Shown: positions 29,900 to 30,403 of the stretch, in pieces
Position numbering within the stretch: the first letter of the stretch is position 1
Layout: each line of letters begins with the position of its first letter
Sequence record: PQ390715.1
DNA length: 64,000 bases
Direction: 5' to 3' (one strand)
Source: Escherichia phage SHEFM2K
The notes under the pieces: model-generated
Database searches by the model: none
What the model was told of the DNA's origin: nothing
The model's input: the letters and a program-made list of their open reading frames with translations, nothing else
Translations under genes and position numbers: made by a program

Positions 29900-30388
29900 G
29901 GACTTTTAATATTGACGGGATTTGAGGAAGGGATTTTTCTTCCCCCCCACAAGGAGGGAAATTTGACGCTGATGGTATCAGAGCTATTGCATTGAAGATT
30001 ACTCATAACGAGTGCGAAAGCGGGTCATCCTGTTTCTCTCTACTTCAGTTTCATATGACGGTCTACACTTTTAAACATAGTGTATCTTCATTAAGTATCT
30101 ATGCAATCAAATACTTAATGTGAGTACTCAAATTTTGGACGCAACTTTCCTGTACAAAATTCGATAACTCTCCCTTAGATAATTCGTAAGGTGTTATCCT
30201 TATATGTCTATCAAGGAACCACCAGCTATCCTAACGTGGTTCTTTATACAGCCGCATTGCCGTGAGGGGTTCAAACTATGCCCACATCTAACGGGTTTCT
30301 TTTGCTGTTCGCACTGTCGGACTGCTCAACTGCCCTCTACGTTTTCGAGTGGATCAGGTACATGAATATCATGCCAACAGAATTGTAC
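29900..30388 (-). ncRNA. candidate structured non-coding RNA (unknown class)
   Basis: About 490 bp with no ORF of 60 aa or more in any frame, visibly higher GC than flanks, several hairpins (GNRA-like GCGAAAGC; GAACCAC..GTGGTTC), own extended -10 promoter at 30395..30403. Confidence 0.3.
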
Positions 30389-30394
30389 AAGATA

Positions 30395-30403
30395 ATTATA
30401 TCA
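30395..30403 (-). promoter_or_regulatory. extended -10 promoter (TGaTATAAT)
   Basis: Minus strand tttgTGaTATAATtat; near-identical to element upstream of tRNA-Ser at 45700. Confidence 0.4.

Follow-up and report, generated by a model that had tools for sequence, protein, structure and literature searches.

The genome of Escherichia phage SHEFM2K raises a question at one locus: what is encoded in a long, gene-free and comparatively GC-rich interval downstream of a sigma factor gene? The window we analysed, meaning the whole 64,000-nucleotide stretch of record PQ390715.1, comes from an Asteriusvirus, a jumbo phage of the 121Q/PBECO4 type. A sequence-only reading of this DNA had singled out the interval for its raised GC and its lack of any sizeable open reading frame (ORF), and both points hold. 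The six-frame listing of 29807-30457 contains nothing longer than 54 amino acids (aa), and these 651 bp are the window's longest run without a six-frame ORF of 60 aa or more, with the tRNA clusters ranking next. GC content at 29908-30389 is 0.413 as opposed to 0.333 window-wide, which is the 99.7th percentile among 480-nt windows. Approximately 480 nt of the minus strand are free of genes between a promoter that points into the interval and the promoter of the downstream genes. We give a probability of roughly 0.6 to the reading that 29912-30403 (minus strand) is an independently transcribed gene for a stable non-coding RNA (ncRNA) that exists in four paralogous copies in this phage and occurs only in Rak2/121Q-like jumbo phages, with an RNA product predicted to be roughly 430-480 nt long. 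That the locus holds a genuine gene for a structured RNA, and one from a new family, we consider nearly certain.

The evidence for a folded RNA is comparative. RNAalifold was run on 46 sequences and gave a consensus in which 34 of 59 pairs show compensatory double changes; all column pairs were then scanned for stacked covariation, leading to a hand-written structure whose 88 pairs form 19 helices, three pseudoknots (PK) among them. Across 64 distinct sequences, standard pairs occupy 94.3% of cells compared to 37-43% in slid controls, 68 of the 88 pairs change on both sides (31-38 of 88 in the controls), and the covariation score is 0.58 versus 0.07-0.10. Not one of 500 shuffles attained the observed pairing and covariation values. 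The absolute pairing figures tilt toward structure because the structure came from the same alignment, and it is the size of the gap to the controls, along with the number of distinct pair types, that chance or shared ancestry is insufficient to explain. G.U combinations fill 6.1% of cells and A.C only 1.4%, an excess that identifies the window's minus strand as the sense strand, the direction in which the promoter also points. The proposal in the sequence-only reading of an independently transcribed, structured minus-strand RNA is thus supported by strand, promoter and covariation, the last being an analysis it had suggested for related phages. Many single-stranded segments are also invariant, namely GAAAA(N)GUA, AGAUGAG, GAAACCCG, CACGGCAAUGCGGC, AUAAAG, GAUAGACAUAUAAGG, UAAGGGAG, CGACCGU, GAAACAG and ACCCGC. 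Dense invariant single-stranded positions and nested pseudoknots typify compact tertiary folds, such as those of RNase P, group I introns, GOLLD/ROOL/OLE and raiA.

The conserved fold covers ~425 nt of the window copy, from 30388 to 29963, and consists of the following parts, each identified by covariation unless another basis is given:

30380-30376 with 30317-30314, minus strand: PK1, 5' CUGNU with the P4 loop (all 5 pairs compensatory)
30373-30369/30365-30361, minus strand: P2, a variable hairpin
30357-30347/30337-30330, minus strand: P3, with a conserved GAAAA(N)GUA loop
30325-30323/30313-30311, minus strand: P4
30187..30308, minus strand: central domain, covarying helices P5-P9
30308-30304/30252-30248, minus strand: P5
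30294-30291/30263-30260, minus strand: P6
30283-30281/30269-30267, minus strand: P7
30242-30237/30221-30216, minus strand: P8, GAACCA/UGGUUC
30202-30199/30190-30187, minus strand: P9
30122..30179, minus strand: invariant UAAGGGAG, then P10 enclosing a hairpin module (invariant columns and covariation)
30170-30168/30124-30122, minus strand: P10
30161-30155/30137-30131, minus strand: stem of the hairpin module in P10, loop UACAGGAAAGUUGCGUC (alignments)
29986..30120, minus strand: 3' domain, covarying helices P11-P15, PK2 and PK3
30120-30111/30098-30089, minus strand: P11
30107-30101 with 29992-29986, minus strand: PK2, the P11 loop with the strand after P13 (99.6% paired, 6 of 7 pairs compensatory)
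30084-30080/30068-30064, minus strand: P12
30059-30055/30028-30024, minus strand: PK3, CGUYRY with the P14 loop (100% paired)
30047-30043/29997-29993, minus strand: P13 (100% paired)
30040-30036/30020-30016, minus strand: P14, with invariant GAAACAG...ACCCGC (100% paired)
30013-30011/30003-30001, minus strand: P15

Throughout the 5' region (30311..30380, PK1 and P2-P4), 87-100% of cells are paired. The invariants of the central domain are CACGGCAAUGCGGC, AUAAAG and GAUAGACAUAUAAGG, and the 3' domain contains invariant CGACCGU after P12. Two hairpins had been picked out by eye in the sequence-only reading, and only one of them survives comparison: GAACCAC...GTGGTTC is P8 and covaries, whereas the 'GNRA-type GCGAAAGC' lies on the plus strand, antisense to the RNA, so that hairpin is unsupported as described. 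The RNA-sense sequence there, CCCGCUUUCGC, forms P14, in which CUUUC pairs with GAGAG 16 nt upstream and 4 of 5 pairs are compensatory. A long-range helix closing the 5' and 3' ends (5' UCUGAU... with site 1, the motif in which the fold ends) was rejected, as it shows no covariation and its 5' segment is taken by PK1. RNAalifold also paired the invariant GAC of CGACCG with GUC in site 2, a repeat of site 1 further downstream; this pairing was not adopted because neither side varies and it is lost in the RaK2 variant. Parts of the fold differ between copies. The hairpin module (loop ACAAUAUAGAUCCGUC; UACAGGAAAGUUGCGUC in the window) sits at one of two points depending on class, either within P10 or after P14 in place of P15, and is absent from some copies. 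The P7 hairpin (alignment columns 190-240) comes in three unrelated forms, GGCAUAGUUUGUACC, AGUACUAGCAGUC...GACAUAAGACUACGAA and AAGUACGUGCAGUCAAUCAAAUGCGACAUAAGACACCGAGA, which are spread across paralogue classes and not within them, as if swapped by recombination.

Could the locus be a small gene that annotation has missed, or the decayed remnant of a gene that related phages carry intact, as the sequence-only reading had allowed? Short hypothetical ORFs are called here in some records (GAP32_503A, Kaldavass, SD phages), and in one class (class 10 copies) a 7-codon ORF, MH(R/Q)(I/F)CTI-stop, begins 3 nt after the Shine-Dalgarno-like UAAGGGAG. However, the called ORFs differ by strand, frame and position from record to record, and the mini-ORF is missing from the window copy, Kaldavass, XbC2 and most classes, so it is probably fortuitous. 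In every relative the locus is either an unannotated gap of ~600 nt or covered by inconsistent tiny ORF calls, and it is ORF-free in every genus examined. In addition to the 54-aa maximum in the window copy, substitutions show no three-base periodicity (81/76/76), indels are not multiples of three, and the conservation is accounted for by compensatory changes. We put the chance of a protein-coding explanation close to negligible.

The family extends well beyond this phage. The region is 99-100% identical to ~20 Asteriusvirus records, including Salmonella phage SD-15_S21 and 121Q (blastn), and low-stringency blastn found a core of ~430 nt conserved at ~70% identity across at least five genera. 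Carriers are Serratia BF, the Erwinia pEa_SNUABM phages and Yersinia fHe-Yen9-03/04 in Eneladusvirus, GAP32, CBB and XbC2 in Mimasvirus, and elsewhere Munch/7t3-like Salmonella and Klebsiella phages, Erwinia phages Kaldavass and Hallingskeid, and RaK2. Each genome has 4-6 full-length copies, dispersed and each with a promoter: 121Q has four, all in plus orientation in its record (90.3, 192.8, 247.4 and 326.6 kb), while BF, GAP32, CBB and Yen9-04 have five each and RaK2 at least two. A blastn search of the window found no further paralogue, because the other three copies sit beyond the 64 kb. Clustering gave about six orthologous paralogue classes, each found in several genera, indicating that the duplications are older than the genera. 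The sequence-only reading had caught neither the 4-6 paralogues per genome, nor the clade-wide family, nor the downstream repeat of the 3' motif.

In IMG/VR, the two invariant motifs used as patterns occur at 3-5 places per jumbo-phage genome, and motif CGGCRAYGCGGCNNNNTAAA finds 3-4 copies per jumbo-phage genome. Matches to the pattern GACCGTN{7,13}ACNGNNNTANNNNGANANNGNNNNACCCGC are confined to this RNA family in IMG/VR, in bacterial and archaeal genomes and in metagenomes, and metagenomes supply 72 further stretches. A scan of 100,044 bacterial and archaeal species (one genome each) returned a single match, on the Silvania hatchlandensis H19S6 contig NZ_JAMGZK010000045.1 (184,944 bp, 41% GC), where a member scores 288 bits at 7771-8281 of the fetched stretch; this contig is probably a co-assembled Rak2-like jumbo phage and not bacterial DNA. 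The window copy falls in the 360-407 bits range of nhmmer over profile positions 1-510, with all 19 helices canonical and with every tail and promoter feature present (TGnTATAAT, site 1, the G-run hairpin and an identical site 2). It took part in building the profile, so its full-length match is a consistency check and not an independent test.

Flanking genes vary among the paralogues and no protein is conserved beside the copies, as expected for a free-standing RNA gene. The window's 262-aa protein at 28580-29368 (minus strand), annotated as an HNH endonuclease in 121Q and ph0011, shows CxxC...DH...CxxC-like motifs. Pfam (E up to 0.01) gives no match for it, it is unrelated to BF_0519 (264 aa), which follows the BF copy, and it has no counterpart beside the other copies. 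Two single records are also of note. In ph0011, the ortholog of the window element lies beside the sigma gene (2498-3019 of its stretch) and is chimeric. Its middle part groups with the 121Q 327-kb class, and its blast alignment to the window copy breaks into two segments (58-66%), suggesting gene conversion between paralogues. In the UE-S1 record ON568341, the first 158 nt of the element (3076-3233 of the stretch) are labelled 'repeat_region'; the UE-S1 paper gives no reason, and the label presumably reflects automated detection of the paralogy.

The sequence-only reading had seen no match to RNase P, tmRNA, 6S or an intron core, and database searches agree with it. At the gathering threshold, Rfam 15 finds only six tRNAs in the whole window; a permissive search of 29700-30500 (E up to 10) gave nothing above 20 bits, and a search of ten other members (E up to 5) gave nothing inside them. 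ARAGORN lists six tRNAs and no tmRNA in the window. A test for a group I intron was negative, the flanks being a terminator and a promoter instead of exons and RF00028 having no match, as was a test for an IscB/TnpB omega RNA (HEARO), with neighbouring ORFs that lack such domains and vary among paralogues and with no HEARO match. It is extremely unlikely that the element belongs to a known class (group I/II intron, RNase P RNA, tmRNA, 6S, GOLLD, ROOL, HEARO/omega RNA) and has diverged so far that the models miss it. Its phage association and tRNA-type promoters are shared with GOLLD/ROOL, and ACAG...ACCCGCUU locally resembles what we take to be the RNase P CR-IV motif, ACAGAACCCGGCUUA. Nevertheless, neither the 800-nt region nor the ten other members match Rfam at these permissive thresholds, no tmRNA, flanking exons or adjacent IscB, TnpB or reverse transcriptase gene was found, and the helix order PK3-P13-P14-PK3'-P14'-P15-P13' departs, by our own comparison, from the group I P3/P7 and hepatitis delta virus (HDV)-like topologies. 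A description of the family is likewise absent from the open-access texts searched, including a 2026 jumbo-phage review (PMC13282480) and the CBB (PMC5259590), UE-S1 and Sharanji genome papers, and we see a rather small chance that it is already described somewhere. Among the tRNAs themselves, ARAGORN calls a tRNA-Ser with the unusual anticodon ACU at window 44547-44638 and a tRNA-Gly at 46722-46794 that is not in the Rfam gathering list, and Rfam gives a marginal tRNA (30.7 bits) at 45520-45598 that is not in the ARAGORN list.

Signals for transcription frame the element on both sides:

30458-31423, minus strand: sigma-70-family gene (Pfam Sigma70 r2/r3/r4 domains)
30452-30429, minus strand: stem of the sigma gene's terminator (terminator scan)
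30418..30423, minus strand: -35-like hexamer TGGGAT, 17 nt upstream of the -10
30395..30403, minus strand: extended -10 promoter TGATATAAT, read from the sequence
29871..29899, minus strand: sigma-70-like promoter TTGACA-17-TAGAAT for the downstream genes (11/12 consensus matches), outside the element and marking its boundary

The sigma gene's terminator and the inward-pointing extended -10 promoter lie about where the sequence-only reading had placed them, and from the spacing we predict a transcription start at ~30388. The likeness to the tRNA-Ser promoter that it had described proves to be an identical 14-mer, TGTGATATAATTAT, located before tRNA-Ser at ~45713-45700, 8-10 nt upstream of the tRNA. 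TGGGAY stands 17 nt upstream of the -10 hexamer in both promoters, tRNA-Ser having TGGGAC. The promoters of the element (30395-30423) and tRNA-Ser (45694-45735, minus strand) are therefore of one type, TGGGAY, a 17-nt spacer and TATAAT after TG, which suggests a phage 'stable-RNA' promoter class. TGnTATAAT is found upstream of nearly all family members; paralogues of other genera have TGAAAC(G) or TGAGAC at the -35 position, and in Mimasvirus/Eneladusvirus copies GTGAAACGTTTTAA precedes TGnTATAAT. These belong to the 'divergent RpoD-like' promoters with a TGAAACG -35 box that have been reported for CBB and GAP32, in CBB mostly before DNA-synthesis genes (PMC5259590). No plus-strand promoter was found within 29912-30403 by consensus scan, which is a weak test. 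In several paralogue classes a strong hairpin and U run, e.g. AGGACGGUACAGUGUAUCGUCCUUUUUU, lie 30-45 nt after the -10 box and resemble an intrinsic terminator, which may terminate the upstream gene, stabilise the 5' end or serve as an attenuator.

At the other end, the element has a tail with four features:

29981-29977/29973-29969, minus strand: local hairpin CUGAU/AUCAG (alignment)
29973-29963, minus strand: site 1, AUCAGCGUCAA, A-Y-S-A-N-CGUCA-R, at the 3' edge of the fold
29942..29956, minus strand: G-run hairpin CUCCUU/GGGGGG (96% paired)
29912..29923, minus strand: site 2, AAAUCCCGUCAA, AA-A-Y-S-N'-CGUCA-R, the downstream repeat of site 1

Site 2 repeats the 11-nt motif of site 1 (AYSAN-CGUCA-R) 50-110 nt downstream, beyond the G-run hairpin. 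The 3' arm of that hairpin, GGGGGG(A)UGAAA, is invariant family-wide (invariant G458-G461), and all six of its pairs vary solely from C-G to U-G; as the 5' arm changes only from C to U, the hairpin is strand-specific. A hairpin and U run follow site 1 in ~49 of 84 members (31 strict, ~18 weaker), and in class 2 the site 1 sequence GUCAGA is itself the 5' arm of the terminator. The window copy has no terminator after site 1.

These hairpins would also suit a cis-acting leader or attenuator, in which the element is a long 5' leader and the terminator, G hairpin and two sites form an antitermination or riboswitch-like switch on the downstream genes. The window copy lacks a terminator before those genes, some paralogues have a hairpin and U run just after the promoter and another after site 1, and the double role of GUCAGA as site 1 and terminator arm in class 2 makes alternative pairings conceivable. 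On the other hand, a separate strong promoter lies between the element and the next gene, and the downstream genes are wholly different among paralogues, the next gene being on the opposite strand in Munch and at the 121Q 327-kb locus. A switch has no complementary covariation backing it, and ~420 nt with three pseudoknots far exceeds known leaders. We consider a leader quite improbable.

In a comparison of the two sites across 90 unique full-length members, 88/89 have the same AYS trinucleotide at both, 89/89 the same core, including UGUCA/UGUCA and the RaK2 pair CUUCA/CUUCA with ACG/ACG, and 81/89 the same purine after the core. In 64 sequences the Y position is U/U in 44 and C/C in 20, with zero exceptions. 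Paralogues inside one genome differ in the trinucleotide (AUC, ACC), and for this reason one sequence-specific protein cannot account for the identity of the sites. No internal guide complementary to sites 1/2 was found; a scan by mutual information (MI) gave only the identical partner column, and other high-MI columns merely follow paralogue class. Within the window, the only trans complement of the sites is the element's own opposite strand, and the site 2 motif is not enriched there as a general promoter element would be (13 matches vs 22 expected). Pairing of site 2 with the 16S rRNA 915-region UUGACGGGG, noticed by eye, was rejected since the RaK2 variant CUUCA disrupts it and a match of 8 nt would arise by chance anyway. 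The identity could be read in several ways: site 1 of the RNA may base-pair with the DNA template strand at site 2, for which ColE1 offers a precedent, both sites may alternately bind one paralogue-specific partner, or a copying or recombination process may keep them identical.

Pairing between RNA and template DNA would also be central if each copy were a replication origin of the 350-kb genome, with the element RNA as primer or R-loop former. The site 1 tail and purine-rich G run would hybridise with the template DNA where the G hairpin and site 2 lie, giving a persistent R-loop that phage RNase H would turn into a primer, and the G hairpin of the displaced sense strand would be a helicase or primosome loading signal. 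T4 employs R-loop origins, later dissolved by UvsW, and 121Q has a T4-like replisome with a UvsW-like helicase, RNase H, UvsX and UvsY. The 4-6 dispersed copies per genome all have one orientation, the run GGGGGGAUGAAA is invariant and purine-rich with a strand-specific hairpin, and the identity of the two sites is the signature expected if site 1 of the RNA pairs with the site 2 template strand, all the more as no complementary partner is found in the RNA or window. The TGAAACG-class promoters of other genera fit as well, as CBB has these before DNA-synthesis genes (PMC5259590). Despite these points we regard an origin as unlikely. A terminator-like hairpin and U run stand between site 1 and the G hairpin in more than half of the members and would halt co-transcriptional R-loop extension, and the two sites match over only 3 + 6 bp, broken by a bulged A. 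A 420-nt pseudoknotted core with so many invariant nucleotides is not something that known primer RNAs need, and the locus shows no GC-skew inflection and no identified AT-rich unwinding element. It is possible, though we lean clearly the other way, that each paralogue recognises its own locus through this template pairing and that the loci are RNA-programmed origins or other sites of RNA-guided DNA transactions; the pseudoknotted core would then be the machine effecting the DNA pairing of site 1 and site 2.

The repeated site could also be the cleavage or target sequence of a structured single-stranded DNA (ssDNA) or mobile element, either a single-strand origin or an IS200/IS605-like palindrome-associated transposable element (PATE) with subterminal hairpins. 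G.T wobble suits ssDNA equally, the direct repeat surrounds a hairpin-bearing segment with copies identical like recombination core sites, and hairpin modules have been relocated between positions and paralogues. Yet the element is framed by a sense-oriented promoter and often also a terminator, no transposase or recombinase is nearby, the 5' and 3' hairpins are mutually unrelated, and the loci are orthologous across genera, hence without sign of recent mobility. We rate this explanation as very improbable.

Coming back to the stable ncRNA gene, our tentative proposal for its function, held at somewhat less than even odds, is that the RNA acts in trans as a ribonucleoprotein (RNP) core, as a catalyst resembling a ribozyme, or as an 'ornate' self-assembling RNA like GOLLD/ROOL, given its tertiary-type conservation, the promoter shared with a tRNA, the terminators and the lack of a constant neighbour. 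The 3' end would lie at or just past site 1; most paralogues would set it by intrinsic termination and the window copy presumably by processing, and the anciently diverged paralogues would provide differing specificities or subunits. The G-run hairpin and identical site 2 would be a linked cis element. Since the RNA's 3' tail has the sequence of site 2, it may bind the complementary strand of the DNA at that site, or the two may have a partner in common.

Several points weigh against an independent, stable RNA of this kind. All members are known from sequence comparison, and no partner protein, substrate or catalytic motif has been identified for the family. The folding check that the sequence-only reading had suggested succeeds in its comparative form, in the RNAalifold consensus given above, and fails as single-sequence folding energy (z = -1.3 sense, -2.0 antisense); single-sequence folding is unremarkable and even misleading on strand, so the case rests on comparison. 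With no terminator after site 1, the RNA of the window copy could read through into the downstream genes. Lastly, sites 1 and 2 co-vary identically and not complementarily, which a purely trans-acting RNA does not explain and which points to an interaction with the element's own locus.

Few large RNAs with elaborate structure are known from bacteria and phages; the main ones are RNase P, tmRNA, group I/II introns, OLE, GOLLD, ROOL and raiA, and each has led to new biochemistry. Covariation support for this family equals that of known large RNA classes, and hosts that include E. coli K-12 and O157 (121Q, PBECO4, phAPEC6, Sharanji) make genetics, RNA-seq and cryo-EM feasible now. Compared to any known class, it is unusual in the 4-6 anciently diverged paralogues retained per genome and in the identically co-varying 3' repeat. 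Either feature could make it testable where replication of a 350-kb T4-like genome starts, and whether RNAs of phages assemble into hetero-oligomers or act as guides in DNA transactions. If the loci do turn out to be origins recognised by their own RNAs, this would be a structured origin RNA class without a described phage counterpart. For annotation, pipelines should cease the spurious small-ORF calls at family loci.

Among known systems, ColE1 RNA II and T4 oriF/oriG come nearest in possible mechanism, and resemble the element in being promoter-driven RNAs of ~500 nt whose fold matters and in which a G run stands close to the 3' end. The pairing partners in ColE1 are the G-rich -265 segment of the RNA and the C-rich -20 DNA; similarly, the element has an upstream segment that equals a downstream segment and could pair with template DNA, with a match of only 3 + 6 nt. 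The likeness to T4 also draws on the several origins of T4-type genomes and on RNase H and UvsW encoded by the phage. Unlike in RNA II, terminators often stand between the sites and the core is far more conserved and knotted, and unlike in ColE1, a consensus scan (a weak test) found no promoter for an RNA I-type antisense transcript facing the 5' region. IS110 bridge RNA, TnpB/IscB omega RNA and HEARO share with the element a structured ncRNA with a short segment identical to an adjacent DNA site, but the element has no adjacent recombinase or nuclease, its loci are stable across genera, and its RNA is much larger than these guide-carrying mobile-element RNAs. The related Pseudomonas jumbo phage PA5oct produces ncRNA002, an RNA-seq-defined transcript of 451 nt with ~5% of phage reads (PMC7318152). 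It is ORF-free, of similar length and from the same broad clade, and indicates that such phages make abundant large ncRNAs (PMC7318152), whereas it occupies a single locus in the terminal repeat; homology to the element was rejected, as nhmmer with all filters off found none. GOLLD and ROOL (RF01998, RF03087) come nearest in kind: they are phage-borne and free-standing as well, densely structured and pseudoknotted over 400-800 nt, expressed like or near tRNA genes, without an associated protein and conserved chiefly through covariation. They occur as one copy in Lactobacillales/rumen phages, whereas the element occurs as 4-6 diverged paralogues in enterobacterial jumbo myoviruses, shows no sequence or model match to them and has the tail of site 1, G hairpin and site 2. 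The family is a novel class of large structured RNA, restricted to one jumbo-phage clade.

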